A DNA stretch of 64,000 nt. It comes from a virus. The notes beneath the pieces were generated by a model. That model was not told where the DNA came from. It was given only the letters and a program-made list of their open reading frames with translations, and made no database searches. A program made the position numbers and the translations under genes. Position 1 is the stretch's first letter, and every line of letters starts with the position of its first letter. Of the stretch, positions 14,643 through 48,100 are shown piece after piece. The DNA lies in the IMG/VR virus record IMGVR_UViG_3300020419_000004; one strand, given 5' to 3'.

Positions 14643-14656
14643 AGTTAAGCTAAATA
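14635..14656 (+). promoter_or_regulatory. Two late-promoter-like motifs (ATAAATA 14635-14641; CTAAATA 14650-14656)
   Basis: TAAATA cores at a gene junction, 17-32 nt before ATG 14673. Confidence 0.6.
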
Positions 14657-14672
14657 ATATAGTTGTAAAAGA

Positions 14673-15011
14673 ATGGCTAGTGCTGTATCCAATTTACTGA
14701 TATATCAGGGTTCTGACTTCATCATCGACTTCACTATTGAAAACGATAATGGGACAGTATTCAATTTGACTGGATATACAGTAGCATGTAAAATCAAAAA
14801 GCATTACACAAGTAGTACGTCCACTACTGTAACTGCTGCAGTTCTTTCACCTGCAACCAGTGGGCAGATTCAATTATCTCTCACAAACGGACAAACGGCC
14901 GCAATGAAGTCAGGTCGTTATGTATATGATGTCGTTATCACAGCAACGTCTGGTGTAAAATCCAGAGTGCTGGAAGGTTCTGTCAGCGTACTTGAGGGGG
15001 TAACTATCTAA
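14673..15011 (+). CDS. Small beta-sandwich structural protein (BppU-N-like)
   Basis: 112 aa; IYQGSDF...FNLTGYT...GQIQLSL...GRYVYDV...RVLEG pattern. Family call from recall only. Confidence 0.65.
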   Translation: MASAVSNLLIYQGSDFIIDFTIENDNGTVFNLTGYTVACKIKKHYTSSTSTTVTAAVLSPATSGQIQLSLTNGQTAAMKSGRYVYDVVITATSGVKSRVLEGSVSVLEGVTI

Positions 15012-15232
15012 TGGCAAGACTAAGATTTGGAGATCAATCAGTTCCAAGAGTAACACGAGTCGCCACAGGTGGTGGTGGAGGTACTATTGGAGGAATGTCT
15101 GATGTAGATCTTACAGACGTATCTCAAGGAGGACTAGCCGACGGTTCAGTGCTAGTGTATTCTGCTGCAGACACAAAATTTGTTCCAACGAACGTATTAA
15201 ACAACATCACTATCAATGGGGGTAGCTTCTGA
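15011..15232 (+). CDS. Small fibre-associated protein
   Basis: 73 aa, 1-nt stop/start overlaps at both ends; fibre-type SDV...GSVLVY...KF motif; ends INGGSF. Confidence 0.7.
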   Translation: MARLRFGDQSVPRVTRVATGGGGGTIGGMSDVDLTDVSQGGLADGSVLVYSAADTKFVPTNVLNNITINGGSF

Positions 15233-16917
15233 TGGCTTCAAATATACTCATAAAAAGGAGTACTGGTTCAACCGCACCAGGCAGTATTACTTACGGTGAA
15301 TTAGCCGTAACAACAGGTGCTAATGGTACCCAAGCAAACGCAGGTGACCGTGTATTTGTCGGAGACAATAACGGTGCTGCTCAGGTTGTGGGTGGTAGAT
15401 ACTTCACAGATCTACTAGATCATGTCCATGGAACTATTACCGCAAGTTCTGCTGTACTTCTAGACAGCAACTTAAAAGTTGATAACTGGAATGTTGATGA
15501 CATTAACCTAAATGCTAACGTCATTACTACTTCCACAACTGACTCTGACCTTGTTTTCCGTGCAAATGGCACAGGTAAACTGGTAATTGAAGATGGTCAG
15601 GAACTAGAATTTGGAACTACAGGTGATGTAGAATTTGTATTTAACGACTCTGATGCTGTTGTAGACATCAAGCGTGTAGCAGGTACCCCCGACTTGCGTA
15701 TCGCTGATGACATGAAGCTTCACTTCGGTAATACAAAGGATGCTTCCATATACTATGATGAGACAACTTCTGACAAAATCCAAGTAGAGGGTGCAGATTG
15801 GAACTATGCTGTCGGTGTTACTGCAAGTTATGCAGATACAACTGATGCTTCCAACGTAGCAACTGCATCTGTAACCTTTGCTGGTGGTATTGGTATTTCA
15901 GCAACCACATGGACTAAAGACCTTAAGGTTGATGACAACACAACTCTTGGTACTGCTAATACAGACATATTGACTGTTAATGCAACAACTACCTTTCAGA
16001 ATGGTGTAACCTTTAATGGTCAAACAAATATCTCTGGTAGCACACAGCAGACTGGTGATATTCAGATTGATAACCTTAAGTTAGATGGTAACACACTATC
16101 TACTATTAATAGTATACAAGAATTGATTATTGACCCATTTCCTGCAGGTGGAGACGCTGATGGATTGGTCATAATTAAAGGTGACCTTCAAATTGATGGT
16201 ACAACAACGACTGTTAACAGTGCTTCAATGTCTGTTAATGATCCTACCATTGAGTTGGCTGATCCTACTACACCTGTCACAGTTAAAACTCTTGCTACCT
16301 TTGCAGGTAACGCAACAGTTGATGTTATACTTGACACTGTAGAGCAATTACAAGTAGGTAATTCAATTACTGGTACTGGTATTCCTGGTGGAACTACAAT
16401 CTCTGCTATCAATACAGGTACAAAAACTATTACACTTAGTGCAGCAATTACTGCTGACCAAGTTGTAGGTGCTACCCTAGTATCAGTTAGGGGTGCTGAT
16501 GATGCAATGGATCGTGGTGTTAAAATCCACTACAATGCTTCTGGAACTAATAAGTTTGGTTTCTTTGGTTATGACCGTACAGGTGGTAACGATGGAGCAG
16601 GTGCATGGACATTCATTGAAGATGCAACTGACACTGGAACAGTTTTCGGTGTAACTGGAAACCGTGGTACAGTTGTATTGGGTGATCTTGAATTAGATAC
16701 CGACCTCGCAGTTCAATACGGTGGTTCTGGTGCTAGTTCATTTAATACAAATGGTATCATCTATGGTAATGGCACAGGTGCCTTACAAGTAACTGAGGCT
16801 GCTAATATGGCATCTCCTGGTACTACACCTGACATGGCCGAATCTTATCAAATTTTAACCGTAACCTCTGGTGGTGTTCCCGTATGGACGAACACGATCG
16901 ACGGGGGTACCTTTTAG
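15232..16917 (+). CDS. Tail fibre protein with Mtd-N-like N-terminal anchor
   Basis: 561 aa; MASNILIKRSTGSTAPGSITYGELAV, GDLQIDGTTTTVNS, GFFGYD; ends IDGGTF. Confidence 0.75.
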   Translation: MASNILIKRSTGSTAPGSITYGELAVTTGANGTQANAGDRVFVGDNNGAAQVVGGRYFTDLLDHVHGTITASSAVLLDSNLKVDNWNVDDINLNANVITTSTTDSDLVFRANGTGKLVIEDGQELEFGTTGDVEFVFNDSDAVVDIKRVAGTPDLRIADDMKLHFGNTKDASIYYDETTSDKIQVEGADWNYAVGVTASYADTTDASNVATASVTFAGGIGISATTWTKDLKVDDNTTLGTANTDILTVNATTTFQNGVTFNGQTNISGSTQQTGDIQIDNLKLDGNTLSTINSIQELIIDPFPAGGDADGLVIIKGDLQIDGTTTTVNSASMSVNDPTIELADPTTPVTVKTLATFAGNATVDVILDTVEQLQVGNSITGTGIPGGTTISAINTGTKTITLSAAITADQVVGATLVSVRGADDAMDRGVKIHYNASGTNKFGFFGYDRTGGNDGAGAWTFIEDATDTGTVFGVTGNRGTVVLGDLELDTDLAVQYGGSGASSFNTNGIIYGNGTGALQVTEAANMASPGTTPDMAESYQILTVTSGGVPVWTNTIDGGTF

Positions 16918-36900: not shown

Positions 36901-37597
36901 TGCAGCGTTAGCAATTTACTCTGCAACTGGTAGAGTATTCATTAACAAAGGATCTGGTGTAAGCACTGGTAGTGGATCACAACTAATGGTTGGTGGTTCA
37001 GTTGAAGCTAGCAGTCAACTTAAATCTACTGTTGCAACTGGTACTGCACCAATCAGTGTTTCATCAACAACTGTATGTACTAACCTTAACGCAGATCTAC
37101 TCGATGGTTATACTGCACTTAACCTTCCATACTTGGGTGCTAGTGTTAACACATGGTTGAATGATGATGGTGGACAACCAAGATTCTACTTTGGTAATAA
37201 CTCTCACACATACTTTAGAACAGGTGACAACTACTACTGGAGATCTGACAATGATACCAGTATGGGTTCATGTGATGGTAACGGTGGTACATGGACATTC
37301 TACTCAGGTAGTGACCAAACACAGACATCTTACAGGGTAGAAGTCAGAGGACAGAACGGATTAAACATCGACAGTGACTCTGTTGGTTTATCAAGTGGTC
37401 AAAGATCTGTTGTACTTCGTGCTAACGGAGACAAGCAGTGGATCGACACATACGGTATTATTAAGAGAAACCGTAATAACATTTCGGAAAACATATCTAT
37501 TAACAATGGGGACAACTGTCAAAGCATTGGTCCTATTACTATAAATAATGGATATACCATTACTATAAATAGCGGTGGATACTGGAGTATCAATTAA
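24989..37597 (+). CDS. Giant modular tail-fibre-like structural protein
   Basis: 4202 aa; interrupted beta-helix-like region, helical repeats, YPR-domain array, repeated (L)DADxLDG shaft motifs, and a C-terminal GPITINNGYTITINSGGYWSI fibre-end motif. Confidence 0.8.
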   Translation: MALKINSDQQRISASGNTPTGNWINATYSRTVTGMVNILSVAHGFIGSDKLYIDFTSGGETDGTYTVTKVDDDNLQYQSTNLGVITAGNTLAYKRVRSLSIQGDETIEMSVGTGANEKDALTVNLNAQNNIRIGVNTTDPLYELDVEGQIRTTRSIISDTAQVVNLDIQTIINPALDLRGPNLINYEDTDVTSPTFGTTFYPTADTPPLTDQSRRLATTDFVYKVATNDTGGRVYVSATIGNDENDGRSAARPVKTVKKAAQIAYTLQKATPDPSDEYVSLIVSGGEYLEDNPISLPRNCSLIGDNLRRVVMRPANQDRHMVKASNETYVFGVVFRDALQNPSDPQSTVIHTWKYAFVFDDKQRLYYEPELQQIPAIPGDKFRGDNLFNITFNNHTGNNTTLVVGYFVQGGSSGTLGTIQSITFTGPDASPYSTGSITILITSGVNDVFQDAEKVFYDAVAANIITDINNASVSNRFDVADAESLRPELETISNQIYQHTVNSERFFEAFSGDATKVNLTTDRITVPNHYFETGSAVYYQKDEATVLAGLADTTVYYVRVIDSNTIELYDNYTNSVATTTTTGRKDITSVSTDTKLHLFTCGNVMPESNNIRIPTHQYATGDGVVYRSGAMGGIDGLVSGTSYYVYRENKDWIRLASSAANAVQKDAQGNDDPVTLPINSTGTGYQRFELAANLLSVGTIDTTIATQQTYRGPILTLAGTEYHDYEVGQEVHLYGFQSSAINFGSSTNTSWSLSSGVVTVTISSVDNTLTSGHFSNWMTLTECGLTFNFSGTGSEALSKTYHIDQFDLGSGTPSLPGNTALGMGYARYNSSSTTITFVLKTANIQSTSNTATATGSTVSVLDNVADLNGRKYITHRIERADGYSLQFVIRAAISVFSASLNPTGNQTVISSSNYVLASLRNSPYGFTKISQTDRYRDGAESIKRNQEFIAEEAYGYVKSHYEQSGTRSSTLVIGPTTFNALGDTFTHPISEWTLTYNYLKVKVNTGHNLSKGFRNHNHIYNGGTASNAITITQGSVQKDVTDATYNPVTGDLVLTIGAHAYTTANTLVIANGAISFTCSRDNHATSHTYPRATDPAYGATLPITAVDAAGTVTVNVGVSAGVTISGSSTAGINGTWAISDVYDHREFTLDIGENTISTGTTGTDGSFNDIRKPYRTPNTFPVSNKQGDGADLIANNAELIAEVAVKKMLAANAGYTPTGGTSACTDDLKDFLQKSLYHNLKWGGNDRVYDAANYYIHYVSTGNKDRYAEAFNYAKEYCMKVIRNLPILRHPHTLAPQYYDTSITLDRAVYGTVPNLTQDAANLLNANNKFISEESVERFISKLTDVAVDAVNGNEITINALNGTTPTNTNPHTFQGVATYQFTPTGGSYDPLTGYMTLTMNGHPFVDGDKVQFAANSIKFTCDLDGDASIKSYPRTTDPWYNKWIGVQKVDANNIKVNVGPAKTDVTNHTWSSATTNAVSRAVVYNDTGFTQHTVTGANYEPITGILTLTIPNHGFTIGEKVQVAQDSLTFTCSMDDNFSKHTYPRATDPALNVWKSVTNVTQNTFDINVGTTPPVTFTPTNATYTPTTGLMELTIGNHTLEAPTSHTVTDASLDTSTGIFTVTINNHGFQEGDKINVAQGSIQMSCGYSGGGNESYPKAGQYADGKWLNIWGVTQNTFSFDCTGGVAVSVSDAHTFVSATTLGLKHVKEHIKLTTGAVTFKCAADGNSTDHAYPRSIVDSHTATTGTTYDPNTGIMKITTTAAHGMRNGDWVKLSEGSISFSCGYNGATGSAAIKAYPRSSDPIYNQWQKVFNVTSSTFDLQVLDSIPSTNTDTHTFVSATSNGIQQKRDKTYNTSVPIVAISGTSITIDVGISSNTTAHVYQSALNNSVITGGNYSHTFISATTNGIKRATASTINNYVPSSGTYNPTTGALVLNIGANDLSAPQTYTSTNGVYNPTTGIMTVTVANHGFQPGDKVKFAVGAISFSCTYGSGGTTAYPRSSDPIAEKWVNCFNITTNTFDVQTLDTTPSTNTNPHTYVSSAANGISHAKSTIKIAVEALELSCTYGDQSTKKYPRATDPIANPRFTIPNHNQDCKDDVSDVLRAVAYNLTNGGNDAVYDHAGYFVGTPHVDGEEFQARAVMELASDISQEVLANETVNIKGWHGVDQTKDLTITVEPGGCASVKSTCDTLFSIVEQAIVTDSLAHATDTAASTPTCADVASSVTTFFDIITTVIGTEAGGYGSLPTTRTVSVGDQQCIDDILHVVRAFQYDLRYTGNSKIVEAANKYISSGAIVHITEEIDYTRAIYAYAKELCIKAIRNDLEAGFFSLIAPISNGSITVDSAKPECANVVSALTTNWGILDNVLSSGTAYSGTTTVPDPLIQEQDAAKYSFPLLNIFLDLPVIEASPYIQNSSLISFLGGSGCDIDGAKVATPNVPRPGLKLDGLGNSIAQFDPQGKSMVANAFTIICFGGTAYNVSNDGYTQLVSVFAIFCQDGIFCQSGGYASVTNSASNFGTYSLRATGFRAEPYSFDIGVIDSITNDADGNGVENGRQVIQVSGTTLTNIPVEDYIIRIGDTNPTDPAVEHIILETEVVSGAPGTQVVAKITTNRSMDYTLTASPNTRYDYASGNLSGLVGKSIQFHRPSVCNSSSHTWEFSGSGNTYAALPQNGGFGLGTAYEASEQAFGQVYTSGTNEFGDFKVGNFVTIFNRTGNISFVGTVSISELSSIKIVGGDITVTGFSDADTLGGVFASDSLLPTQASVKDYISNNLGPYLNQPYSTNAVPSALVQLTSSGKINIDQIPALRPFNITSVTSEAERLAIENAQAGDIAIQTTATSFSVAPASINTGADTITIASHGANTGDGLTYTQGTTAIGGLSTNTKYFAIKVDDNTIKLATTKSNATNNQIITLSGQGTGTHTFTTDGVAVSYILENDLESQFLAFQPDSNFSFSVGAIVQGSTTTARGTVSAFNDGQIFNFVISDGGGDYTGDFALTIAAPDDAGGTQAAATANVTSGIVTKVTITNAGSGYYTQPTVTAPNSPSNNNAVIAAQIEGRVAINIANNIKFDASDFLLDGANANLGTGTYSQTGSTITVSESGHNLANGALAYLDFTSGQGADGFYAITLVNANEFTVTSATSTSTTGNVSRKRIIDLTRVINTSGSNIANWTQLTSTNIDASNIVAGTVDPERLANKGISNSFTFLRGDSSWEYALQSIRPSTQDAVVIGGSVTDSSYIDTITITNGGTGYTNGTYQNLPLQGGNVSISDAGVARATYIVSGGVITSAQVTDSGTGYTAGFSVTIPSEFGGGNGAILAANKGTINRAFGNIEIDIKKGDNLTPAASVYGNYGVFRFRKDIANQAIGNQDQGGFIIDNDGQVSIDQGPGSGLNADLLDGNGGGFYTNASNLTQGTLAAARLANTTYAISISGTADKANRIFNESASLTSNPAPAQASDGVGAALRNNTATGLNDGGTTHGIMTYRRQATGTATTQLGFTDNNNLWVRGNSGGNAVYGNWYKMWSGLNDGAGSGLDADKLDSHQGLWYQSGYNFGASQGGINKPMGDIFLPEVLGEDKMVFENFYLNDSGLKYTLYVPDFHVSTGTGGNVNNGGTYTIYSDVGATNNIGSIVVDGAGVQELTHTSGEIYSLITGTIAFVGNNTNANIYVVGPNPGTKWTVTSSNLISSGSSTVIGMRDAAAGAKLQVGKASVSTTPTVDFRSSGQAPEYDVQFLISGGNTNNGNGTIRINTGDITVNGNTMWHAGNDGSSSQLDAHYVDGFTQSTSANANTLARRDASGHLTVNDLTGDQGIFQNTGASILQLADGNGVNLGKATTNALSIQGRNSASVGYIRFGNDSNSFGYNGTYLNYNNVTFRSGRVGIGDTNPGSPLEIVAEGNASSATAFADFRDGRSGYGRITFGADGSSSFMTFTDTDNDMGWQLGADDNDQSWFAIRNFADASGALSTSFQSNAKVNAALAIYSATGRVFINKGSGVSTGSGSQLMVGGSVEASSQLKSTVATGTAPISVSSTTVCTNLNADLLDGYTALNLPYLGASVNTWLNDDGGQPRFYFGNNSHTYFRTGDNYYWRSDNDTSMGSCDGNGGTWTFYSGSDQTQTSYRVEVRGQNGLNIDSDSVGLSSGQRSVVLRANGDKQWIDTYGIIKRNRNNISENISINNGDNCQSIGPITINNGYTITINSGGYWSIN
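29015..31240 (+). repeat. Nested YPRxxDP/HTF domain array in the 4202-aa protein
   Basis: Seven YPR/YPK motifs here plus one more copy at 28031-28339; same domain as in gp7. Confidence 0.9.
37540..37571 (+). promoter_or_regulatory. Two TATAAATA late promoters (37540-37547, 37564-37571) embedded in the 3' end of the 4202-aa gene
   Basis: Two exact consensus matches 24 nt apart, 62 and 38 nt before ATG 37610. Confidence 0.6.
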
Positions 37598-37609: not shown

Positions 37610-38365
37610 ATGGCTGGCATTTTAAGGGTTGACCAAATCCAAAGTACAGGTGGAAGTAACGTTATAGACGTTTCTTCTGGCTCATTCAAACTCTGGAACG
37701 GAAGTTCATACGAGAGTTTCACTATTGAAGGTGCGTTGATTTCGATGAACGTATACACATCACAGAATGGTACATGGAACAGTAAGTCCACTTCTGGTTC
37801 TTCAGGAACATGGAGTAAACCTTCAGGTTGCAGTAATGTTCTCGTCTACTGCACAGGTGGTGGCGGTGGTGTTCGCTGTAATGACAACTCTTATCGTGGA
37901 GCTGGTGGTGGCGGTGGTGCTACTGCTATCAAATATATTGATGTTTCTAACGTAGGTTCAGTCGGATATACTTATGGTGGTGGCGGTGGATACGCCCGTA
38001 ACGGAGGTAGAGGAGGTACAGGTGGTACTTCATCCTTCGGTTCATACTGCACAGCAGGTGGTGGACAAGGTGGTCAAACCGATAACCCATATCAGGGAGG
38101 TCCTGGTGGATCAGCATCTGGTGGTGATATTAATGTACCTGGCGGTGGTGGTGAGATGTCTCACGGTCACAACAGAGAAGGTGGTGGTGGATCATCATTC
38201 TGGCACAAGGCAGGATCTTCACACCATTATGCCAACAACCAAGAAGAGATTACTCATGGTCAGTGGGGATCTGGTGGAGGATATGGTTATTATTCTCAAA
38301 ACAGTTATGCACACAACAACGGTAACGGTGGTGCAGGCGTAGTTATCGTATTCAATTACACATAA
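37610..38365 (+). CDS. Glycine-rich adhesin-like fibre tip protein
   Basis: 251 aa; N-terminal MAGILRVDQIQ fibre-docking-type motif, then dense GGGGG tracts (GAGGGGGA, GGTGGTSSFG, GNGGAGVVIV). Confidence 0.7.
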   Translation: MAGILRVDQIQSTGGSNVIDVSSGSFKLWNGSSYESFTIEGALISMNVYTSQNGTWNSKSTSGSSGTWSKPSGCSNVLVYCTGGGGGVRCNDNSYRGAGGGGGATAIKYIDVSNVGSVGYTYGGGGGYARNGGRGGTGGTSSFGSYCTAGGGQGGQTDNPYQGGPGGSASGGDINVPGGGGEMSHGHNREGGGGSSFWHKAGSSHHYANNQEEITHGQWGSGGGYGYYSQNSYAHNNGNGGAGVVIVFNYT

Positions 38366-38370
38366 AGATT

Positions 38371-38736
38371 ATGAGTTTCGCATTAGTAGACAGAGCATCT
38401 AACCAAACTATACAGTTTGTGGTAGAAGAAGAAGAGTGCTTTGAATGTCACGAAGATTTTAAATGGGTAGACATCCCTGACGATTGGGTCATGGAAGAAG
38501 GTACTAACCCTCCTGACTTTAAATGGAATCCTGATACCCAGAAAGTCGAACGTGCTGTGCCGACACCTCTTGGTTGGGAACAGAAAAGAATGTTTGCCTT
38601 TGAAGATATGACGGTTGAGCAGCAGTTAGGAAACCTCTTTGATGATATTGAAGCAGGTGTCTTTGGAGATATACAAGGTAAGAGTAAATTCTATACAGCA
38701 ATAAAAAATATTAAGGAAGCTTATCCTAAGGACTAA
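38371..38736 (+). CDS. Putative tail-fibre assembly chaperone
   Basis: 121 aa, acidic; C-terminal R...EQQLGNLFDDI...FYTAIKNIKEAYPK pattern, as recalled from small genes that follow marine phage fibre tips. Confidence 0.6.
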   Translation: MSFALVDRASNQTIQFVVEEEECFECHEDFKWVDIPDDWVMEEGTNPPDFKWNPDTQKVERAVPTPLGWEQKRMFAFEDMTVEQQLGNLFDDIEAGVFGDIQGKSKFYTAIKNIKEAYPKD

Positions 38737-38739
38737 ATC

Positions 38740-40110
38740 ATGTCTCAGTTAAATTCTGGAACCGCACAAGTAAATACTCTAACTACTTCGGGGAGCACAA
38801 TCTCTATCCCGAAGAATATTAGTGTCACTGGTGATATAAACTTCACTGGTACTTTGTTGCAGAACGGAGTTGCTTTTGAAACACTACCCACTCAAAGTCC
38901 TAAGACTGCGGGTGGTATTTTAATGTCTGATGGTGAGAATGCTTTCTGGGGAACCACTCTTGCTGCGGAAGGCGATGTAGGTGGTAACAATAACTTTGGT
39001 TACTACAACTCATCTCCCTCTACAACAACTGGTGCAGGTGGACAGAACCCTACAGTTTCTTCAGGTGATTACCTTCCTTACTCAGGAACAGGTAGTTGGT
39101 ATGACTACAACGGTTCGCAGTATAATATAACAGTCGGTTCAAGTTTTAGATATAGAAGTATATTCACACACTCGTTCTTAGTTGGTGGTTACAGAGGATC
39201 AAACCCATGGAGATCAGTTAACCAATGCTACAACGCAACAGATATTACAATCTCTCGTGGTGACCAGTTAGACCGAGCAGCATCATATGTTGACGGAAAC
39301 TTTGGTGACTTCAACGGATATGTCTATGGTACTGTAAACTCCTACGGTGGTAGTGGTGCTTCAGTATCTAGTGTCAACCTACACACAGGAACTAACAGAA
39401 CATTCGGTCCTAACGGAACACCTGGCCACAGTGATGCATACAACACTACTCCAGATAGTATCGGTGCTTCAATGGATACTTGGGATGGTACTGATGACCC
39501 AGGTTCTGCATCAGGACAAACAACACAGAGAGGATACACCTCAGGTGGTGGTCCTGGATCTATTCAGAGAATGAACTTTATCACTGAGATGTGTACTCGT
39601 CTTGGTAATGGTTTCAGTAACTCAGGTGCTACTGGATCCGAAGGACAGTATAGATGCCATCTATTTGGTGACACAGGTAACTCAAGATATGTAGAATTTA
39701 GTAACGAGTCCGTTAACTCATACTCCTTAAGTGGATGGGGTGGTAACGGATGGAAGAAGAACTTGTCAACTAAGTGGGGTTTCTGCTATCATGGTAACAG
39801 TAACAATGTTACACTACCATGGCTCAAATTTAACGATACCAATAATACATCTATTGGTGGTGCATTTAACCAAGCAGATATTTCATCTGGTGAAGAGAAT
39901 ATGGCAATGGGTCAAGATTGGGGTTATTGTTTAGGTAACTATGCTTCTGGTACAGGTAACTATCAGAACAATAGAACATGGAAACGTTACCATGCAACTG
40001 ATGCTGATGTAGTATTAGGATTTAAAGCAGAACCTAAGGGTCACCAAGGACAGTCCTCTGGATGTTGTTTCACTGGTGCGTTCTCAGTAACAGGATTGAG
40101 GTATCAGTAA
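38740..40110 (+). CDS. Putative receptor-binding protein with Kelch-like beta-propeller
   Basis: 456 aa; N-terminal fibre-like VTGDINFTGTLLQNG, then recurring Gly/aromatic blades (FLVGGY, GYVYG, GYTSGG, GYCLGNY). Confidence 0.55.
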   Translation: MSQLNSGTAQVNTLTTSGSTISIPKNISVTGDINFTGTLLQNGVAFETLPTQSPKTAGGILMSDGENAFWGTTLAAEGDVGGNNNFGYYNSSPSTTTGAGGQNPTVSSGDYLPYSGTGSWYDYNGSQYNITVGSSFRYRSIFTHSFLVGGYRGSNPWRSVNQCYNATDITISRGDQLDRAASYVDGNFGDFNGYVYGTVNSYGGSGASVSSVNLHTGTNRTFGPNGTPGHSDAYNTTPDSIGASMDTWDGTDDPGSASGQTTQRGYTSGGGPGSIQRMNFITEMCTRLGNGFSNSGATGSEGQYRCHLFGDTGNSRYVEFSNESVNSYSLSGWGGNGWKKNLSTKWGFCYHGNSNNVTLPWLKFNDTNNTSIGGAFNQADISSGEENMAMGQDWGYCLGNYASGTGNYQNNRTWKRYHATDADVVLGFKAEPKGHQGQSSGCCFTGAFSVTGLRYQ

Positions 40111-40265
40111 TGAGCGAACAAAACACAGGAGATGCAAGAAAGATGTTTTTTAACACAGACCTTGCATCAAAGATAAAGCAAGATCAACAGGATGTAACTA
40201 TTGAAAACCTTAAGGCAGAAATCACTGCCATGAAGAATAGGATTACTGCTCTAGAAAATGCCTGA
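40110..40265 (+). CDS. 51-aa coiled-coil protein (start revised to ATG 40110)
   Basis: TAATG coupling with the upstream stop; MSEQNTG...IENLKAEITAMKNRITALENA. Confidence 0.7.
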   Translation: MSEQNTGDARKMFFNTDLASKIKQDQQDVTIENLKAEITAMKNRITALENA

Positions 40266-41193
40266 TAACAAACTCTACATAGAAGAAAAACTTTTTGATG
40301 TTGAATGGAAGAAAAGAATTCCATCCGATCTTATTGAGGATGAGGATTTCCTACGTCCAAAATACGAACCGCAGCATCCACTAGAACTTGAGACTAAGAA
40401 GTTTATAAAAGATAAAGAACGTATCAAGGAAGGTTTCATCTATATGATGATCCACGAAGATGCTCTTAGAACTGCTGGTATCAAACCACACGAGACATCA
40501 TACTTTACGTTGTTCAATTTTTATAACGTCTCAACCATCAAGATGAACAAACTTGTGTTCGAGACTGTAAAGTCTACCTTCAGAAGGTACGTTGAACTTG
40601 ATGAAAAAGAATTCACTACTGGAGTTAAGTTCCAAGGTGAGATACGCTCACACTTCAAAGACTATGAAGCTGTGATGCAAGATGATGGATCCTTAGACTA
40701 TGAGAAGGTAAAGAAAAAGACTGTACCTGAACATATAAATCTTGCTGTACAGTTCATGAAGAAGCAAGCAATCTTAGTTATTGAACATGAGTTTGATCTT
40801 AGGTTCAAGAACTTTAAGAACTGCTGTGACGTAGAGTCTGAGAGTTGGGTATACCAACTTGAAGAAGCAAGAAAATACAAGGAGAGTGAGGAAGCTAAAA
40901 CTCCTTTCCTAGATATATTATGCATGACAAGAGGTATGCAGAAGGCAGAACTTGTAAAAAGGGTTCTCAAAAACCATGATAAATACCTTATAGATTACGC
41001 CTCATTATTAGGCAAATATCATGCGATACGTTCCCAGTTTAGAAACTGTGAAAATATGTGGGATATGAACATCTTGTACGAAGACTACTTGAATGTTGGT
41101 ATGCCAATCAAGCAAGGTCAGAAACTTGGCCGAATTGATGAAAATGAAAAGCGACTTGATGGAGATTTAGCATATGGCACTTTCGGATTCTGA
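40258..41193 (+). CDS. Putative tail-fibre assembly chaperone-like protein
   Basis: 311 aa; C-terminal half ESW..Q..EA......TPFL..L...RG.....LV..V......Y......LLGK resembles fibre-assembly proteins of other tailed phages (recalled pattern, not searched). Confidence 0.55.
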   Translation: MPDNKLYIEEKLFDVEWKKRIPSDLIEDEDFLRPKYEPQHPLELETKKFIKDKERIKEGFIYMMIHEDALRTAGIKPHETSYFTLFNFYNVSTIKMNKLVFETVKSTFRRYVELDEKEFTTGVKFQGEIRSHFKDYEAVMQDDGSLDYEKVKKKTVPEHINLAVQFMKKQAILVIEHEFDLRFKNFKNCCDVESESWVYQLEEARKYKESEEAKTPFLDILCMTRGMQKAELVKRVLKNHDKYLIDYASLLGKYHAIRSQFRNCENMWDMNILYEDYLNVGMPIKQGQKLGRIDENEKRLDGDLAYGTFGF

Positions 41194-41974
41194 TGCACTC
41201 TGTAGGCAAAACCTAGAAGGAAATAAAAAGACTTGGGTTGAAGCTGCTTACAAATTAGAAGGCGGTCAGTCGAAATACCAAAACCAGAATTTTGTAGTTG
41301 GTTCACAAATAACACCATATAAGAAAGTGCAGCAAGCACTTCTCGAACTCCAGACGAGGGATAATACTCGTGTGGAAGTGGAGTATAGTCTTAAGAAAAA
41401 CGAGATCAATAGACGGATGTTGTTGAGAGACTTGAATGCAACTGAAGATGACCTTGAACAAGAACTGATACAACTAGAAATAGATAAGTCAGATTATGAC
41501 AGATCTCTATTCGTAGAGAAACTAAAGACAGTCAACAAAGAAATGGATGTCTTTATAGCAGAACTTGAAGAGAATGTAGATAGATCAAAAGGTATAGAGT
41601 ACTATCTTGTTACCAATGAGGAAGAAGATAGGAAGTACTGGCAGAGTAGAATGGCAAAACAGGCTGCATGTGATATAATTGCATTTGGTCGTCTTGGTGC
41701 AGGTAACATGGATTCAATTATGAATCTACCTGAGCAAGATCAAGTCAACATCCTATCTGGTGCAGTACATCATTCTGCACTGATAGGTGCAGGTGTCCAA
41801 CACATGACACAGCAAATGGAGGGTACCTGCAATGGTCTCCTCAATGGTGATAAGTTCTCACCACCACAAATTAATGGTTCGGAATTAACTGACCGCCTCC
41901 CAGAGGTGCCCACATTACCTGAAGTGAAACATGAAATCCCCAAAGAGAAAATCCGTCTTCAGTCTTCCAATTAA
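41174..41974 (+). CDS. Hypothetical helical/coiled-coil protein
   Basis: 266 aa; GGAG RBS; SKYQNQNFVV...TPYKKVQQALLEL and YWQSRMAKQA...GNMDSI motifs. Confidence 0.75.
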   Translation: MALSDSDALCRQNLEGNKKTWVEAAYKLEGGQSKYQNQNFVVGSQITPYKKVQQALLELQTRDNTRVEVEYSLKKNEINRRMLLRDLNATEDDLEQELIQLEIDKSDYDRSLFVEKLKTVNKEMDVFIAELEENVDRSKGIEYYLVTNEEEDRKYWQSRMAKQAACDIIAFGRLGAGNMDSIMNLPEQDQVNILSGAVHHSALIGAGVQHMTQQMEGTCNGLLNGDKFSPPQINGSELTDRLPEVPTLPEVKHEIPKEKIRLQSSN

Positions 41975-43694
41975 TCCTAAGATTGATTCCAAGTATGCAG
42001 ACACGGTTTTTGTACCTTGGTTGAAGACATATAAAGATTATATTAGCGACTTATATTTTACCTGTCGTATGCCACCATTCACCCAAGACTCAATGGGTGA
42101 TGTATTTCAAGGTGATGTAAGGCAATTGTATTATAATGCGAAAGCAATATCAGAAGATGCTGGTGACATACCACTGTCTGCTACATTCAATAACATATAC
42201 ATTAGACCAGACCTAGAAAATCTAGACCTGTTCGTAAAGAACTTTGGTCAGTTGTATGATCAAGGTATCAAGATTGCAACCATACCACACACCAGTTGGG
42301 TTAGCACTGGTATATTACAGAAAGAATTTCCAGAACTAAAGATCAAGAATACTATACTTAGGAATGTCACAAAGGCAAATGAAGTAGTAGCTCTTGCTAA
42401 GGCAGGTTTTCATTACATCAATCTAGATAGAGATTTGATGAGAGATAAGGAAGCGTTGAAGAAGATAAAGAAAGCAAAGGAATATTGTGCTGAGATAGGT
42501 AAACCTGTAGAGTTATCCATTCTAACTAACGAGGGTTGTTGGGGTGGTTGCTCTATGATGGATGAGCATTACCATTTTAATAATACAAGGACAGAGATGA
42601 CCCCTCAGTATTTTAATGATCCTATCAGTACCCACTCTTGTTCACTATGGGATATAGAAGATAACTCTCATGCTCTAAAGTCAGCTAACCTACCTCCTTG
42701 GAGAGAGGATTGGGAAGAGTTCTTAGACCTAGGTATAGATGTATTCAAGATGCATGGTAGAGAAAATGCCATGAAACTAATGGAATCTATGCAAATGATA
42801 GAAGCATGGGCATCTGAAAATGAATTGGTAACAGGTGAATTTAAGGAGTACATGGAAGATCTTGCAGTACCAGATAGTCCTATTGCTCTATGGAGAGAAA
42901 AGATAAAGACATGTGGTTTTGACTGTTGGGATTGTAACTATTGTGAGAACGTTGTCAATGCACACCTCAAGAAACAAGGTAGACCAACTACAGTTGATGA
43001 TTATACTCAGAGAGTATTGGATGCTATAATCGCTGGCAATACCAACACATCTAATTTTGTACCAGACAAATATAGTATTCAAGGACTGTCCTCCAATAGG
43101 ATAAGACATTTCCTTAATAGTCTTTGTTCTCATGATGATGCAGTCTATCTTGAACTTGGTACCTTCATTGGTAGTACGTTCTTTGCTGCTACCATGGGTA
43201 ATAAAGCAAAGTGTTTTGGTGTAGATGACTTCTCAGAACCCAATGTTAAACCTATAGTTGATCGTGGTCAGTGGACTGAGTGTGGTAATCCATACGATAC
43301 CTTAGTTACTAACTGGAAAAAGTATGAGAATGGTAATGCTACATTTGTTAAAGCAAGTGTGGACGAACTAACTGAAGAAGACTTTGAAGGTAGTAAACCC
43401 AACATCTTGTTTTATGACGCAGATCATGATATGATGCAACAGATGAACAATCTTAATCATCTGCTACCCTTCATGGATGACAAGTTCATACTTGTTGTTG
43501 ACGATGCCAACTTTGATGGTGTTGTAGAGGGAGCAGTAACATGGGCTCAAGAGAACAACTTACAGTGTTACCTTGAAAGAAAGATCCTAAGTAGTGTCAT
43601 AGAAAGTCCAGTCCACTGGTGGAATGGAATTCATGTTATGGTTTTACAAAAGGACGCAAGAGTAAAAGAATACATTAGTGGGAACGGATTATGA
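41931..43694 (+). CDS. U32-family (Fe-S hydroxylase-like) domain fused to a class I SAM methyltransferase
   Basis: 587 aa; SDLYF, INLDRDLMR, LTNEGCWGGC, GIDVFKMHGRE and Cx3Cx2Cx2C (42912-42944), then YLELGTFIGST, ILFYDADH and ILVVDDAN. Confidence 0.75.
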   Translation: MKSPKRKSVFSLPINPKIDSKYADTVFVPWLKTYKDYISDLYFTCRMPPFTQDSMGDVFQGDVRQLYYNAKAISEDAGDIPLSATFNNIYIRPDLENLDLFVKNFGQLYDQGIKIATIPHTSWVSTGILQKEFPELKIKNTILRNVTKANEVVALAKAGFHYINLDRDLMRDKEALKKIKKAKEYCAEIGKPVELSILTNEGCWGGCSMMDEHYHFNNTRTEMTPQYFNDPISTHSCSLWDIEDNSHALKSANLPPWREDWEEFLDLGIDVFKMHGRENAMKLMESMQMIEAWASENELVTGEFKEYMEDLAVPDSPIALWREKIKTCGFDCWDCNYCENVVNAHLKKQGRPTTVDDYTQRVLDAIIAGNTNTSNFVPDKYSIQGLSSNRIRHFLNSLCSHDDAVYLELGTFIGSTFFAATMGNKAKCFGVDDFSEPNVKPIVDRGQWTECGNPYDTLVTNWKKYENGNATFVKASVDELTEEDFEGSKPNILFYDADHDMMQQMNNLNHLLPFMDDKFILVVDDANFDGVVEGAVTWAQENNLQCYLERKILSSVIESPVHWWNGIHVMVLQKDARVKEYISGNGL

Positions 43695-43768
43695 GTGCAT
43701 GGTATGTTATAGGTTGGACTATAGTTACACTATGGTTACTGACTAAGTTAGGTGTATTTAAAAAATGA
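43691..43768 (+). CDS. 25-aa hydrophobic micro-protein (not in ORF track)
   Basis: MSAWYVIGWTIVTLWLLTKLGVFKK; exactly fills the gap with ATGA overlaps to both neighbours. Confidence 0.7.
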   Translation: MSAWYVIGWTIVTLWLLTKLGVFKK

Positions 43769-44475
43769 AGGTAATAAATCCTGAGTTATTGCAAACTCAT
43801 CACCCTAAGGACTGGGAGATAGAGCAATTACATATTGGCAATGCAAAGAATAGGATCATTAAGATCAAAAATTTCTTTCAGAACCCAGAACAGGTAAGAG
43901 CATATGCACTAGCAACTGATTATGTTAATACAGTTGGTGGTCAATTTTCTAATCTACCTGGTTATGTGTGCAAGTTAGGACACATAGCAAATCAGTTCTA
44001 CCCTAACTTCAAGTTCTTATTGGCAACTTACTTTGAAGCTGATAAGAAGATCATGCTTCAACCAGAGTTCTCCCACTTTACATTTCAAATGTATGAGGTA
44101 CAGGAGAAATGTAGGATGTGTAGTCTAGCACCGCATACTGATGACACTCACTATGCTGCTGTTCTATCATTAAATTTCGATGAAGAGTTGATGGAGACTT
44201 CATCGGGCACTGCATTCTGGAGAAGTAAAGAGTTCAAAGAGGAGTATGTCTCCTCTGACAAGAACTATAGAACTTCTAGACTAGCTAACAAAGTCAATGC
44301 CTTTGTTAATTTTGACCCATCACAATACAAAACTAAAGACTGGGAGAGGTATCATGTTGAGAAGCATGAATTCAATTCTCTGCTAGTATATGAAGGAAGA
44401 CTATGGCATTCACCATACTTTCAACAAAGTGGATGGGATACAAACCGTCTAACCTTCAATGCATTTCTGCACTAA
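43765..44475 (+). CDS. 2OG-Fe(II) oxygenase-like protein (DUF6445-like)
   Basis: 236 aa; HxD (PHTD, 44134), distal His (WHSP, 44407) and the 2OG-binding-type Arg (NRLTF, 44446); N-terminal IKNFFQNPEQVR. Confidence 0.75.
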   Translation: MKVINPELLQTHHPKDWEIEQLHIGNAKNRIIKIKNFFQNPEQVRAYALATDYVNTVGGQFSNLPGYVCKLGHIANQFYPNFKFLLATYFEADKKIMLQPEFSHFTFQMYEVQEKCRMCSLAPHTDDTHYAAVLSLNFDEELMETSSGTAFWRSKEFKEEYVSSDKNYRTSRLANKVNAFVNFDPSQYKTKDWERYHVEKHEFNSLLVYEGRLWHSPYFQQSGWDTNRLTFNAFLH

Positions 44476-44478
44476 ATA
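44471..44478 (+). promoter_or_regulatory. Late promoter variant ACTAAATA
   Basis: Overlaps stop 44473-44475, 21 nt before ATG 44500; same variant at 45091 and 59787. Confidence 0.65.
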
Positions 44479-44499
44479 GTACACTTATCATTCTAAAAC

Positions 44500-44691
44500 A
44501 TGGACGCTGAGACAATGGTGAAGGACTTCACCGATCAATTAAAAGAACAAAAGGGAATTATCTCTGACCTTGAAAAGCAACTTAGTACTCGTAAAGAGCA
44601 AGTGCTAAGATTGGAAGGTGCTGTTGAAGCATTACAGATGACACTGAAACAACCAGAGCCAGAAACAGTAATCAATGCCCCTACAGAATAA
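44500..44691 (+). CDS. 63-aa coiled-coil protein
   Basis: Heptads LKEQKGIISDLEKQLSTRKEQVLRLEGAVEAL. Confidence 0.7.
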   Translation: MDAETMVKDFTDQLKEQKGIISDLEKQLSTRKEQVLRLEGAVEALQMTLKQPEPETVINAPTE

Positions 44692-45019
44692 AGCATCGTC
44701 AATAGGAACATCAAGTGAACTCCGTAAACAGGAGCATGCAGATTCCTATCAGTTTCATGTTGACTTTGATGGGACTATGGAAACTTGTCCCTACAAAGTA
44801 GGAGATATCTACAATGAGAGACCTATTATTGCAATAGGACTTAGTAGTAATGTCTATGGAAAGTACTATCATATTATAGTTGAAAGAGATAAGACACACC
44901 TCAGAATGAAGTTTCAATTTGACCAGAAGCACGATCTCAAGTTCGCTAAACCAGTAGAACGGATGGGTAAGCAACCTACCGAAGGAGAGATAAAGAAGTT
45001 GTTGGCTCAGACAGAATAG
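44675..45019 (+). CDS. Hypothetical protein
   Basis: 114 aa, overlaps the previous gene by 17 nt, followed by a terminator. Confidence 0.65.
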   Translation: MPLQNKASSIGTSSELRKQEHADSYQFHVDFDGTMETCPYKVGDIYNERPIIAIGLSSNVYGKYYHIIVERDKTHLRMKFQFDQKHDLKFAKPVERMGKQPTEGEIKKLLAQTE

Positions 45020-45043
45020 AAAATTCACTAATAGATTCCATTT

Positions 45044-45073
45044 TACTCGAAAAAATTTTTCGGGTATTTTTTT
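45044..45073 (+). terminator. Rho-independent terminator
   Basis: TACTCGAAAA-AAT-TTTTCGGGTA forms a 10-bp stem with one G-U pair, followed by T7. Confidence 0.75.
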
Positions 45074-45113: not shown

Positions 45114-48100
45114 GTGTCAATACTAATGAAGCGAGTCATCGTCAGGGTAGCTGATAGATATAGTTTGGATTCAGCAGTTGCAGGAATCCTAAAAACATAT
45201 GGATATCTAACCTTTGTAACATCCTATAGAAGTTTTTCAATCATAACGTTCGATTGTCCAGAGAAGTATTCTACTGGCATGATCGAGAAGTTACGAGCTC
45301 TTTCGGTTGTCAAGAAAGTCTCATGGGATGAAGCAGATAAGTTTTCTCTTGATCCTGTAGATACAGGTGCGTTAACAGTTGAGACCAGTGGGTCAACCAG
45401 TTTAAATAATACTGGTGAAACAAACGCCCAATCAAATACTAGAAATTTAACAGGTAGTGGTGGTGGTACCATATTTGTAAAGGTGCAGAATATTTCTGGA
45501 TCTAACTACTACACCTTCTCAGCAAGTGCAGGTGGTACATACTCAAGATATAATAACCAAACTGGTTTCCTACAAGGATCCACTTATACATTTGATCAGT
45601 CAGACCCTTCAAACGCGACTCATCCATTAAGATTTTCAGTAGACCCAGACGGACCTCACACCTCTGGTGGTAGTCAAATGACTACAGGTGTTACTGTAAC
45701 TGGTACACCAGGTCAGGCAGGTGCACAAGTAGAAATAGTTATTGGTACATCTACACCATCTATTCTTTATTACTACTGTACTGCTCACAGTGGAATGGGA
45801 CGATATGGTGCTGCTCCAGATAGGTTTGGTACAATCAACGTTCATGACTATTGGCATCTAGATAGAATTTCAAAACAAGACAGGCAATATTTAAACGGAC
45901 AGTTTAGTTTCAGTCATTCAGGAGACGGTGTAGATATCTACGTTCTTGACACAGGTGTGCGTGGAGCAAGTAGACCAACAGGTAACAACGCAGCTCTTCA
46001 CCCTGAGTTATACGATCCAGACTTCGTATCTGACTTGAATGGTACTTCAGAGCAACAGAACTATAGGGTATACGAGGTTACTGGATACACAAGTCCATAT
46101 AGTACTAACGAAGATGACAACGGACACGGTACATATTGTGCAATTATGTCAGCTGGAAGAACGGCTGGTATAAGTAGGAACGCCAAAATCTATGCACTTA
46201 AGTGTTTTAACAGTGGGTTATCAGGTAGCTATACTGATATCCTAGGTGCTTATCAGGCAGTCATAGATCATAATGATAGTGGTAATGCCAATTATAAAGG
46301 TAATAATCGTCCAGCTGTAATCAACTCATCATTCGGACCTACCATTCCTACAGAGTCATATCCATATGTCGAACTAAACGACAGTGGTGATGACAGTGGT
46401 ACTGACGAAGAGATCCTAGATGACATCGAGGGTACTATTGCTGGTACAAAAAATCTGATTATAGTCAGGTCAGCTGGTAACGGTTTTAAGAATTCTAGTG
46501 ATGGATTTGCAGGACCTATACAAGGTAAGATGATTGCAGGTACTAGAACTGCAGGTTATTCTGACAATACTAATGGTGGTGTCAACTATACAGATACCAA
46601 CCAGAATAAGATCGCTGTTGGTGCATCTGAATATAATGACAGGTGGGCAGACTTCTCTAACTATGGTGCAGGTGTAACTACAGTAGCACCAGGTGCCAGA
46701 TTGCTTACACCAGCATATGACTGGACTGCTAATACTCCATATACAAGTGCTGCAAACTATCAGACGATTGCAGGTACATCATTCTCAGGTCCTTTAGTTG
46801 CAGGTATCATTGCTGCATGGTGTGGGAAGAATGGATATACGTTAACTACAAATAATTTACCTGGTCTTGCTAAGACCTTTATGAGAACTGGTGGAGTCAC
46901 TGGAGATATAACAAGAGGTGCAACAGCAAACTATCCTACTAATAGTATTGATGATAAAAGACTTATAGACAACCCATATGAAACTTTAGCTGGATCCTCA
47001 TTCCTTGTAGTTAAGTTTGATCCTGCAGACAACTCACACTTCATAGGTAACGTAGGTAAAAAATGTCAGTTAAGAGCAACTGGATCTACTGCAGGTGCTG
47101 GTGGAACTGCTGCTTCAACATTTAATATAACAACGACTGCACCTAGTTCGTCATACTACACCCTAAGTGGAACTGATAGAAATGGTGCTGTTAGTGGTAA
47201 CAATGCAGGTGTCACTGTCTATGTTGGGGATACTATTAATTTCAATCTATCATCTGTCAGTGGTTCTCATCCATTCTATATCAAGAGTGTACAAGGAACT
47301 GGAACTGGTAATCAAGTATCCACACCAACTGCTACTGGACAAGGATCTACAGGAACCACAACAGTATCATGGGTACCAAATACAGTAGGAACATACTACT
47401 ATCAATGCTCTGCACACAATGGAATGAATGGAACTATCACAGTTTCATCTGCACCTGGTGGTAGTGGTGGAGTTACCGTTGGTGGTATAGATGTATCTGG
47501 ATTAGCACAAAGTGGATGGTTAACTATTCAGGCAGAGAATGCTGTCAATAATACTATCACGGTTCAGAACACAACTAATGCTACAGCTGGTACAACTGGT
47601 GGTGGTACTGGAAACTATCTTGCACTTGTAGATCCTGAAAGTAAAACACATGAAAGTATTGATGGTGTTGTTTCTAGATCAGTAACTTTAAGATCTCAAA
47701 CCGACACACAGGAAGCTGCAGGTACTGGTACATATACTAATGTAGTTTACTATCCATTAGATAGTGGTGTTGACTTTGACTATTCAGGAACAGGTCCTTC
47801 ACTAACCACTAAGCGTGGTGCATTCTTCCCCTTTGTTGATACCAATGTAACTTGGGCAACTGGTGCAGGTAGTATTGGTGGTCCATTTGCTAATGGTGCT
47901 TCTGTAAGTATTGACTTAGGTTTGACTGGTACAACCTTTGCATCAGAACCAACGTTTGAAGCATATACTCTCAGTGGAGATAGTATTGCAGCGTCTGGAC
48001 TAGGATTAGATACTGCAACAGGTATTTTAAGTGGAACAGTTACAGCAGATTATCTTGACACATCATTCAACTTCACTGTAACTGAGAACACTACAGGAAA

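Follow-up and report, generated by a model that had tools for sequence, protein, structure and literature searches.

Why does a cyanophage place a U32-like domain fused to a methyltransferase, and beside it a 2-oxoglutarate (2OG)-Fe(II)-type oxygenase, among its tail-fibre genes, and on what would such enzymes act? The question is raised by positions 37610-45073 of a 64-kb window (the whole stretch of DNA analysed, from virus record IMGVR_UViG_3300020419_000004). This 7.5-kb stretch is the distal end of a late tail-fibre operon of a T4-like cyanomyovirus, and it contains a four-gene cassette (T4-GC351 to T4-GC354) whose last member is the fusion gene. T4-like cyanophages are among the most abundant marine viruses, and the fibres that determine their host range are poorly understood. 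Our tentative answer, to which we give somewhat less than an even chance, follows the original prediction made from the sequence alone: the unit would be a fibre-tip module with dedicated tailoring enzymes that act on the fibres. Linkage in related and some distant phages suggests, without proving, that the cassette enzymes modify fibres. Behind this answer stand the observed gene order, the folds and motifs of the domains, linkage that is conserved between genomes, and late expression of the orthologues in a related phage.

A U32-like domain fused to a methyltransferase

The fusion gene and its two domains are positioned as follows.

41931-43694, + strand: 587-amino acid (aa) protein, T4-GC354, phrog_1458; overlaps the gene for the 266-aa protein by 44 nucleotides (nt)
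41931-42989, + strand: U32-like TIM-barrel N-domain of the 587-aa protein (AlphaFold2 model, match to 5d88, seven invariant cysteines)
43149-43505, + strand: class I S-adenosylmethionine (SAM)-methyltransferase domain, Methyltransf_24 (PF13578), residues 407-525, found with Pfam

The N-terminal 350 residues have no sequence match in Pfam, NCBIfam or the PDB, and a comparison of the whole protein and of the fusion-family profile with PDB chains gave nothing significant. An exhaustive HMMER search with the N-domain recovered 277 representatives, many of them standalone proteins of 330-450 aa. Seven cysteines (C203, C207, C237, C328, C332, C335 and C338) are invariant in 54 homologues with identities down to 22%, as are E201, E212, H213, K273, R277 and others; as judged from the alignment, such a pattern of cysteines and polar residues is typical of a metal or active site.

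The AlphaFold2 model of the N-domain is a confident TIM barrel (predicted local distance difference test score, pLDDT, 93.7), and its top Foldseek match is the U32 peptidase Mk0906 (5d88; E = 1.9e-6). Structures were compared with VIA-align twice, once seeded by Foldseek and once in a Foldseek-independent exhaustive scan of 48,161 chains. The model superposes on 5d88 with Z = 16.4 and a root-mean-square deviation of 3.3 Å over 228 of 247 residues, while the next fold, MTHFR, scores about 4 Z units lower (Z = 12.1-12.6). Neighbours of the domain in the ESM Atlas belong to clusters that are named ‘Peptidase U32’ or have PF01136 in 20% of their members. Because predicted structure and ESM Atlas neighbours agree, we describe the domain as U32-like, and the predicted U32 label holds at the level of fold and superfamily. 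It does not extend to the family: the PF01136 hidden Markov model (HMM) fails (in the whole phage record there is no match at E ≤ 0.001) and the cysteine motif differs, so the domain is not a PF01136 member.

In the U32 family, the cysteine motif CX6CX15CX3/4C binds a [4Fe-4S] cluster (PMC6747719). The N-domain cysteines are arranged differently, as C203-x3-C207-x29-C237 and C328-x3-C332-x2-C335-x2-C338, and iron-sulfur (Fe-S) binding by this pattern is possible. Characterised U32 enzymes catalyse an O2-independent, prephenate-using hydroxylation of an sp2 carbon in an aromatic or heteroaromatic ring (PMC6599085, PMC5727448, PMC6747719, PMC10990095). The N-domain has the same TIM-barrel fold as the U32 hydroxylases UbiU/UbiV, TrhP and RlhA (structure Mk0906, 5d88) and, like the family, has conserved cysteines just after the central beta-strand. 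Unlike known U32 proteins, it has no PF01136 match, a different cysteine spacing, a fused methyltransferase and a location among the late structural genes of a phage. A two-step scheme in which a U32 enzyme hydroxylates and a SAM-dependent enzyme then O-methylates has its logical counterparts in TrhP/TrmR and in UbiU/V plus UbiG; these are two separate proteins, whereas here both domains are on one polypeptide.

The methyltransferase label of the original prediction is borne out by the domain search. The Methyltransf_24 match is marginal (28.1 bits vs. a cut-off of 26.3) and lies above the Pfam threshold, and SAM motif I is recognisable as LELGTFIGS, which points to a probable SAM-dependent enzyme; E408, G414 and D525 are nearly invariant. 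A search of the PDB with this domain gave no sequence match.

The long start at 41931 is taken as correct because residues 1-54 hold invariant positions and the first barrel strand. Deposited fusion coding sequences start ~50 codons late in S-CAM4 (C440309_103, L001:8157-9740) and P-SSM4 (PSSM4_035, L005:9136-10701), and the ~50 residues that they lack include invariant positions and the first barrel strand.

Conservation and timing of the four-gene cassette

By tblastn, the fusion gene is found in 126 phage records. Three of these come from Ralstonia jumbo phages and have the N-domain as a standalone protein; the others are all from cyanomyoviruses. Across ~90 cyanophage loci, GC351-GC352-GC353-GC354 are contiguous wherever the available flank suffices; the single exceptional lineage has ~5 kb inserted between GC353 and GC354. 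The cassette occupies one of two genome positions, either between the giant fibre gene and gp13 (this phage, S-CAM4, P-HM2 and most metagenomic loci) or near gp5, downstream of the ‘structural protein’ and ‘fiber’ genes GC345/346 (Syn19, P-SSM4), and fibre genes precede it at both. The expectation that the enzymes would be linked to fibre or tip genes elsewhere is therefore upheld, by contiguity in nearly all of the ~90 loci, by the two positions and by a distant clade that lies beside adhesin genes (see below). An earlier comparison of 16 genomes (Sullivan 2010) placed the four genes together in the same five genomes, with GC352 absent in one, and that paper and its supplements list GC351-354 only as hypothetical proteins (PMC3037559).

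Linkage and late expression were two of three tests set beforehand for the prediction, and both favoured it. In the infection transcriptome of P-HM2, PHM2_098 is classed as ‘Late (E)’ and PHM2_099-101 as ‘Late (D)’ (together equivalent to GC351-354), and PHM2_096, the giant fibre gene next to them, likewise belongs to ‘Late (E)’ (PMC5082946). Late expression is thus seen for the orthologues in a relative of this phage.

The insert between GC353 and GC354 in S-ShM2 (L015:6236-11982) consists of a mobile petE-gnd cassette and other small genes.

A helical protein as the partner of the U32-like domain

The gene that directly precedes the fusion gene is the following.

41174-41974, + strand: 266-aa helical protein, T4-GC353, phrog_1409; overlaps the 311-aa gene by 20 nt

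Members of the 266-aa family are encoded directly upstream of the U32-like gene both in cyanophages and in Ralstonia phage RP31, whose homologue is recognised by hmmsearch (E = 6e-46) and by phrog_1409 (E = 9e-69). Because this pairing spans cyanophages and the jumbo phage, the 266-aa protein is the most faithful partner of the U32-like domain. The strictest partner is the 266-aa protein and not the fibre tips, and this qualifies the predicted linkage to tips. In RP31, ORF137-135 (L003:5335-8056) encode the 266-aa homologue, a standalone U32-like protein (ORF136) and a DUF401/CitMHS-type transporter-like protein, and a gene for a virion structural protein follows 1.5 kb further downstream.

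The AlphaFold2 model of the 266-aa protein (pLDDT 75.5) comprises a long helical hairpin, further helices and a disordered tail; the hairpin is generic, and the model has no fold match at E ≤ 0.001. In the family alignment the tail ends in a conserved RLQSS motif, which could be a docking peptide or a substrate. By analogy with UbiT, which serves UbiU/UbiV, an obligatory accessory protein is plausible for the U32-like domain. Residues ~230-266 (41870-41971) form a variable disordered linker followed by K-x-R-L-Q-S-S across cyanophage lineages.

Distant homologues beside adhesin genes

A second clade (P0209 and relatives), present in viral contigs, comprises U32-like proteins with ~27% identity to the N-domain. 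The gene order in this clade is Gly_rich_2 adhesin, phrog_1787 protein, U32-like gene (L102, L103, L105 and L017/L018), and the first two are the same pair as the 251-aa and 121-aa genes of the present unit. In L102, L103 and L017/L018, a full-length homologue of tryptophan (Trp) halogenases (E = 1e-105) is encoded next after the U32-like gene. Such loci may represent a halogenating variant of fibre tailoring. In L105 (6103-11811) the U32-like gene lies between two Gly_rich_2 adhesin genes, and genes for a Phage_tail_APC chaperone and a homologue of the T4 baseplate protein gp8 come after it. The complete series of adhesin, phrog_1787 protein, U32-like protein (~430 aa) and halogenase is located on marine contigs at L102:6385-11095 and L103:685-5062.

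Other homologues have other neighbours, and the U32-like family is thus not restricted to fibre loci. Two tandem paralogues (364 and 366 aa) reside in a sulfation cluster in L020 (743-9287), a pairing that recalls UbiU/UbiV; the cluster encodes a sulfotransferase, TauE, PAPS reductase, a CysN/C-like kinase and a GNAT protein. With the standalone homologue P0138 as query, a locus search returned no hits.

Fibre-side proteins upstream of the enzymes

The part of the unit upstream of the 266-aa gene contains five open reading frames (ORFs).

37610-38365, + strand: 251-aa glycine-rich tail-fibre/adhesin protein (Pfam Gly_rich_2, phrog_863)
38371-38736, + strand: 121-aa acidic protein, phrog_1787, 5-nt gap after the 251-aa gene
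38740-40110, + strand: 456-aa Gly/Ser/Asn/Thr-rich protein, T4-GC351, ‘sericin-like’, phrog_1417, after a 3-nt gap
40110-40265 (51 aa) or 40062-40265 (67 aa), + strand: small ORF
40258-41193, + strand: 311-aa charged helical protein, T4-GC352, phrog_1604, with an 8-nt overlap

The 251-aa protein (26% Gly) had been read as an adhesin, and several lines of evidence agree. It matches Gly_rich_2 (PF21722) at 33.7 bits (cut-off 24.3) and the tail-fibre family phrog_863 at E = 1e-66, and its family profile matches solved fibre chains of cyanophage Pam3 (7yfw, 7ypx; E = 7e-4, residues 54-268). The combination of an HMM match and homology to a fibre from a virion structure marks it as a probable tail-fibre tip of the Gly_rich_2 type. 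Its gene also has the layout of the gp38 adhesins of T2, T6 and S16, to which we presume that it is comparable: a short Gly-rich tip is encoded after a giant fibre, with a small partner gene next. We know of no enzyme that acts on gp38 or on the Pam3 fibre. Unlike gp38 and the Pam3 fibre, whose likeness to the 251-aa protein lies in gene layout and in the profile match, respectively, the adhesin pair in this phage and in L102, L103 and L105 is accompanied by U32-like genes, and at some of these loci by halogenase genes.

The 121-aa protein may, from its position, be a candidate assembly partner or chaperone of the adhesin; its family, phrog_1787, comes after Gly_rich_2 adhesins in contigs L018, L102 and L105 too. 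The 456-aa gene opens the conserved four-gene cassette (T4-GC351-354). The 456-aa protein has no Pfam match and its family profile found nothing significant among PDB chains, and the ‘propeller’ suggested for it is not confirmed. The ‘chaperone’ label of the 311-aa protein likewise finds no support; its ESM Atlas neighbours are only unnamed viral clusters. An NCBIfam search returned nothing for any of seven proteins of the unit. Gly, Asn, Tyr and Trp are all abundant in the tip proteins.

The 456-aa protein is not put forward as another adhesin of the 251-aa kind, as hhalign gave no relation between the two families (probability 0.1). The small ORF is annotated as a 51-aa gene only in close relatives, and its tblastn matches are confined to the nearest clade.

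Oxygenases beside the fusion gene

Two genes follow the fusion gene directly.

43691-43768, + strand: 25-aa hydrophobic micro-ORF, with ATGA overlaps at both ends
43765-44475, + strand: 236-aa 2OG-Fe(II)-oxygenase-type protein, DUF6445 (PF20043), Pfam match with an HxD...H triad

The 236-aa protein matches DUF6445 at 60.8 bits (cut-off 24), and H124-x-D126...H215, the 2OG-Fe(II) iron-binding triad, is invariant in 12 DUF6445 sequences with identities down to 21%. R228 (NRLTFN), the candidate basic residue for binding the C5 carboxylate of 2OG, is present in 9 of these 12 sequences, and the three most distant have an Arg 2-3 columns further on. A comparison with PDB chains gave nothing significant. 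The protein is accordingly a putative 2OG oxygenase, as had been proposed.

When the fusion proteins were clustered at 80% identity, 20 cyanophage clusters were obtained, and 15 of them have a 2OG-Fe(II) oxygenase gene as the immediate neighbour of the fusion gene (14 downstream, one upstream). By lineage it is DUF6445, 2OG-FeII_Oxy_5 or 2OG-FeII_Oxy_3; S-CAM4 has Oxy_3 and Oxy_5 upstream of GC351 and DUF6445 and Oxy_5 downstream, in L077 the fusion gene is followed immediately by a run of seven 2OG-Fe(II) oxygenase paralogues (11671-15539), and Syn19, P-SSM4 and P-HM2 have no oxygenase adjoining it. DUF6445 itself is known from 9 isolate records, compared to 126 for the fusion gene, and in S-H9-1 it follows gp23, the major head gene. 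With so few records and this other location, DUF6445 is not a fixed partner of the fusion gene. A ‘dedicated’ oxygenase is therefore supported as linkage of the superfamily (15 of 20 clusters) and not as conservation of DUF6445. The occurrence of three oxygenase families at one spot points either to a functional link or to a site where insertions are frequent.

The S-H9-1 DUF6445 protein (PQC11_gp105, L006:9001-9711; phrog_1644) is labelled ‘minor coat protein’ in RefSeq and PHROGs; the sequence supports no coat role, and the label may stem from the place of the gene after gp23. In L061 (11659-13728), two Oxy_5 genes flank the gene for a 264-aa protein with 4Fe-4S ferredoxin motifs, a possible electron donor. 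Relatives L007 and L011 keep the frame and hydrophobic character of the 25-aa ORF, with an indel of 6 nt that leaves the frame intact. The ORF is missing in S-CAM4 and confined to the nearest clade. In a comparison with clusters for ribosomally synthesised and post-translationally modified peptides (RiPPs), no protease or transporter was found among the Pfam and PHROG matches in the unit.

Fibre tips as candidate substrates, and competing explanations

The U32-like, methyltransferase and 2OG assignments of the original prediction stand at superfamily level, and the tip proteins are the putative substrate. As we picture it, the unit would encode a Gly-rich tip fibre (251 aa) with a small partner (121 aa), a cassette made up of a Gly/Ser/Asn-rich fibre-like protein, two helical proteins and a bifunctional U32-like Fe-S/SAM-methyltransferase enzyme, and a lineage-variable 2OG-Fe(II) oxygenase (here DUF6445). 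Late in infection, during fibre assembly, the U32-like domain would place a hydroxyl on a carbon in an electron-rich side chain, and this hydroxyl would then be capped by the fused methyltransferase to give a methoxy group; capping is proposed because a SAM methyltransferase is fused to the U32-like domain. The 266-aa helical protein may help as a subunit or as a substrate-presenting scaffold, and the adjoining 2OG oxygenase(s) could carry out further hydroxylations that depend on O2. The fibre-tip proteins, rich in Gly, Asn and aromatic residues and encoded immediately upstream, would be the targets, and receptor binding or virion stability might thereby be tuned. Aromatic residues are suggested because U32 enzymes and flavin halogenases attack rings and the tips are rich in Tyr and Trp. 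Catalysis by the cassette enzymes, like their Fe-S binding, is putative.

For covalent modification of tail proteins that affects adsorption, the closest precedent found is the mycobacteriophage MepM system, in which methylation of a tail protein is reported to be needed for adsorption; MepM is encoded by the host, whereas the cassette enzymes are phage-encoded and would include hydroxylases (PMC13445384). A fuller version of our reading combines several claims: phage enzymes would widen the side-chain repertoire of receptor-binding tips, with a new protein-directed U32 branch, fused to an O-methyltransferase, working with 2OG oxygenases (in the sister clade, with a flavin-dependent Trp halogenase); the products would be hydroxy-, methoxy- and halo-aromatic adhesin residues, and the 266-aa protein a substrate-delivery subunit. 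As a whole, this version is doubtful.

Several observations weigh against tailoring of fibre tips by these enzymes. PF01136 has no match at E ≤ 0.1 in the 587-aa protein and none in 10 diverse homologues, the CX6CX15CX3/4C motif is absent from the N-domain, and characterised U32 enzymes act on RNA or a quinone, not on protein (PMC6599085, PMC5727448, PMC6747719). The methyltransferase domain is far less conserved than the N-domain and is missing from standalone forms (e.g., RP31 ORF136). Further U32-like homologues adjoin radical-SAM enzymes, a sulfation cluster, or an SLT gene with QueD. The link between cassette and adhesin is also imperfect in both directions: P-HM2, Syn19 and P-SSM4 have the cassette and no detectable Gly_rich_2 adhesin, and Pam3 has a Gly_rich_2-type fibre and is not among the 126 fusion-gene records. 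Collagen-like G-X-Y runs, which were sought because they would suggest prolyl hydroxylation, are limited to one 5-repeat run in the 2448-aa protein. The virion proteomes analysed are those of S-SM1, S-PM2 and Syn9, none of which carries the cassette, and fibre modification accordingly has the standing of a proposal.

This genome also has at least seven further 2OG-type matches outside the module, and for that reason the site before gp13 could be an accessory-gene hot spot. The junction would then tolerate insertions and give late expression, and the substrate would be off the virion (e.g., a host envelope component or receptor, a glycan, a quinone or a small metabolite). The oxygenase beside the fusion gene does switch family by lineage and is absent in some phages, DUF6445 follows gp23 in S-H9-1, a mobile petE-gnd cassette lies inside the block in S-ShM2, one U32-like homologue belongs to a sulfation cluster, and the usual view of cyanophage 2OG oxygenases is that they serve metabolism (PMC3037559). 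The fusion gene itself, however, does not vary in this way: it has the same three partner genes upstream of it at both genome positions, its U32-like domain has a member of the 266-aa family as its partner even in a Ralstonia jumbo phage, and the distant U32-like clade is embedded between adhesin genes. We regard a hot spot as unlikely. A nucleic acid as the substrate is improbable. Fibre-operon context in two clades, late expression of the P-HM2 orthologue with structural genes, the lack of any RNA-binding domain in Pfam and NCBIfam searches, the unmatched PF01136 and the different cysteine pattern all speak against C5 hydroxylation of a pyrimidine in tRNA, rRNA or phage DNA, followed by formation of a methoxy base. 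What makes such a pathway worth considering is that the RNA-acting U32 enzymes (TrhP, RlhA) all perform this chemistry (PMC6599085, PMC5727448) and that a hydroxylase-methyltransferase fusion fits the conversion of 5-hydroxyuridine (ho5U) to 5-methoxyuridine (mo5U); in addition, one distant homologue adjoins a QueD/PTPS gene and a dCTP deaminase gene is located within a few kb of RP31 ORF136.

The faithful pairing with the 266-aa family across very distant phages, the tightest that the U32-like domain has, could also mean that the partner itself is modified. In such a RiPP-like system, the substrate would be the disordered RLQSS tail of the 266-aa protein, whose terminal motif is conserved after a variable disordered linker, or the 25-aa micro-protein, whose ORF is translationally coupled on both sides, and not the fibres; two homologues adjoin radical-SAM enzymes, as in peptide-maturation loci. 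Yet the 266-aa protein is large and mostly folded, the 25-aa ORF is limited to the nearest clade and missing in S-CAM4, and there is no leader/core architecture, protease or exporter, which makes a peptide substrate quite improbable. The 587-aa protein might, finally, have lost its activity and serve as a fibre assembly chaperone or minor virion component. Its gene lies among those of putative chaperones, and its methyltransferase domain is poorly conserved, with few nearly invariant positions; seven invariant cysteines and invariant polar residues in 54 sequences down to 22% identity, together with a retained SAM motif I, nonetheless make a non-catalytic role very improbable. Tailoring of fibre tips is the reading that we prefer.

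Relation to earlier work

The superfamilies themselves are already known, and GC351-354 have been listed as hypothetical proteins since 2010. In the literature searched, there is no description of the U32-like fold of GC354 or its methyltransferase fusion, of the fusion’s fixed helical partner or flanking oxygenase arrays, or of U32-like genes recurring beside adhesin pairs in a second clade, and a search on cyanophages and U32 found no relevant paper. Cyanophage 2OG-Fe(II) oxygenases (T4-GCs 104, 240, 412 and 611) have been read as modulators of 2-oxoglutarate or nitrogen status (PMC3037559). The oxygenases beside GC354 belong to the same superfamily and likewise occur as multiple paralogues per genome; unlike in accounts of those four families, they cluster beside GC354 in a fibre module, which is not noted in the literature searched. 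If fibre-tip tailoring is correct, the unit would be a phage-encoded system for post-translational tailoring of adhesins that we did not find described in the literature searched, and the U32 superfamily would gain its first substrate that is a protein. The same reading would also offer a new explanation for many cyanophage 2OG oxygenases that are currently treated as metabolic genes, and predictions of host range from fibre sequence alone would overlook a chemical layer.

Setting and limits of the transcription unit

The phage record is a 129-kb viral contig (~71% complete), and the 64-kb window is a single + strand block of structural genes. A baseplate wedge gene is followed by genes for giant proteins (2016, 2228, 2448 and 4202 aa), the stretch 37610-45073, an 1833-aa protein, gp13, gp14, gp15, the large terminase subunit and the tail sheath. 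In a megablast search with the 7.5-kb stretch, the sole match was 450 bp to P-SSM3, and hence no isolate is close at the DNA level. The nearest isolates at the protein level are S-CAM4 and ACG-2014j (66% identity on the 587-aa protein), and Tara Oceans scaffolds have the same gene order with ~85-90% identity.

The unit is bounded by the following features, and two further genes precede its terminator.

Ends at 37597, + strand: 4202-aa giant fibre gene, 12-nt gap to the 251-aa gene
37540-37547 and 37564-37571, + strand: two TATAAATA late-promoter-type motifs within the 3' end of the 4202-aa gene
6190, 14635, 24414, 37541, 37565, 40979, 54172, 61446 and 62387, + strand: ATAAATA copies
40979-40985, + strand: the ATAAATA copy within the 311-aa gene, ~190 nt upstream of the 266-aa start
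44500-44691, + strand: 63-aa coiled-coil protein, phrog_580
44675-45019, + strand: 114-aa protein, phrog_26228, last gene before the terminator
45044-45066 (feature to 45073), + strand: intrinsic-terminator-like hairpin with a 10-bp stem and then a T-run, 3' of the 114-aa gene

Between the promoter motifs (37540, 37564) and the terminator (45044-45066), 12 + strand ORFs abut or overlap, with gaps of 3-24 nt and overlaps of 1-44 nt. The original prediction had described a tightly packed late unit with these limits, and all the ORFs that it named, both motifs and the hairpin with its T-run are present at their positions. Its gene list was correct as far as it went and omitted the 63-aa and 114-aa genes, which belong to the unit because the terminator hairpin comes after the 114-aa gene. 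Compared to a T4-type late unit, TATAAATA is present upstream and a hairpin downstream, and late expression is taken from the P-HM2 orthologues.

Both TATAAATA motifs are part of a direct repeat, ATTACTATAAATA, within the 3' end of the 4202-aa fibre gene. The window has 5 copies of TATAAATA, all on the + strand and 4 of them within ~55 nt upstream of a gene start, a total that is not above chance (4.7 expected); a promoter function at 37540/37564 is thus putative. ATAAATA, with 9 copies that are also all on the + strand, is depleted relative to shuffled sequences (16.7 expected). This frequency, about half of that in shuffles, is consistent with selection against stray late promoters. The copy at 40979 could be an internal late promoter ahead of the 266-aa gene.

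The 63-aa and 114-aa proteins have 79% and 65% identity, respectively, to P-HM2 T4-GC517/518, compared to 59% for the fusion protein, and their genes are much more conserved than their neighbours. GC517/518-type genes precede the giant gene upstream of gp13 both in this phage and in P-HM2. The 1833-aa protein encoded before gp13 (45114-50615) matches phrog_3677, 613 and 3995, which are annotated as protease, head protein and tail protein.

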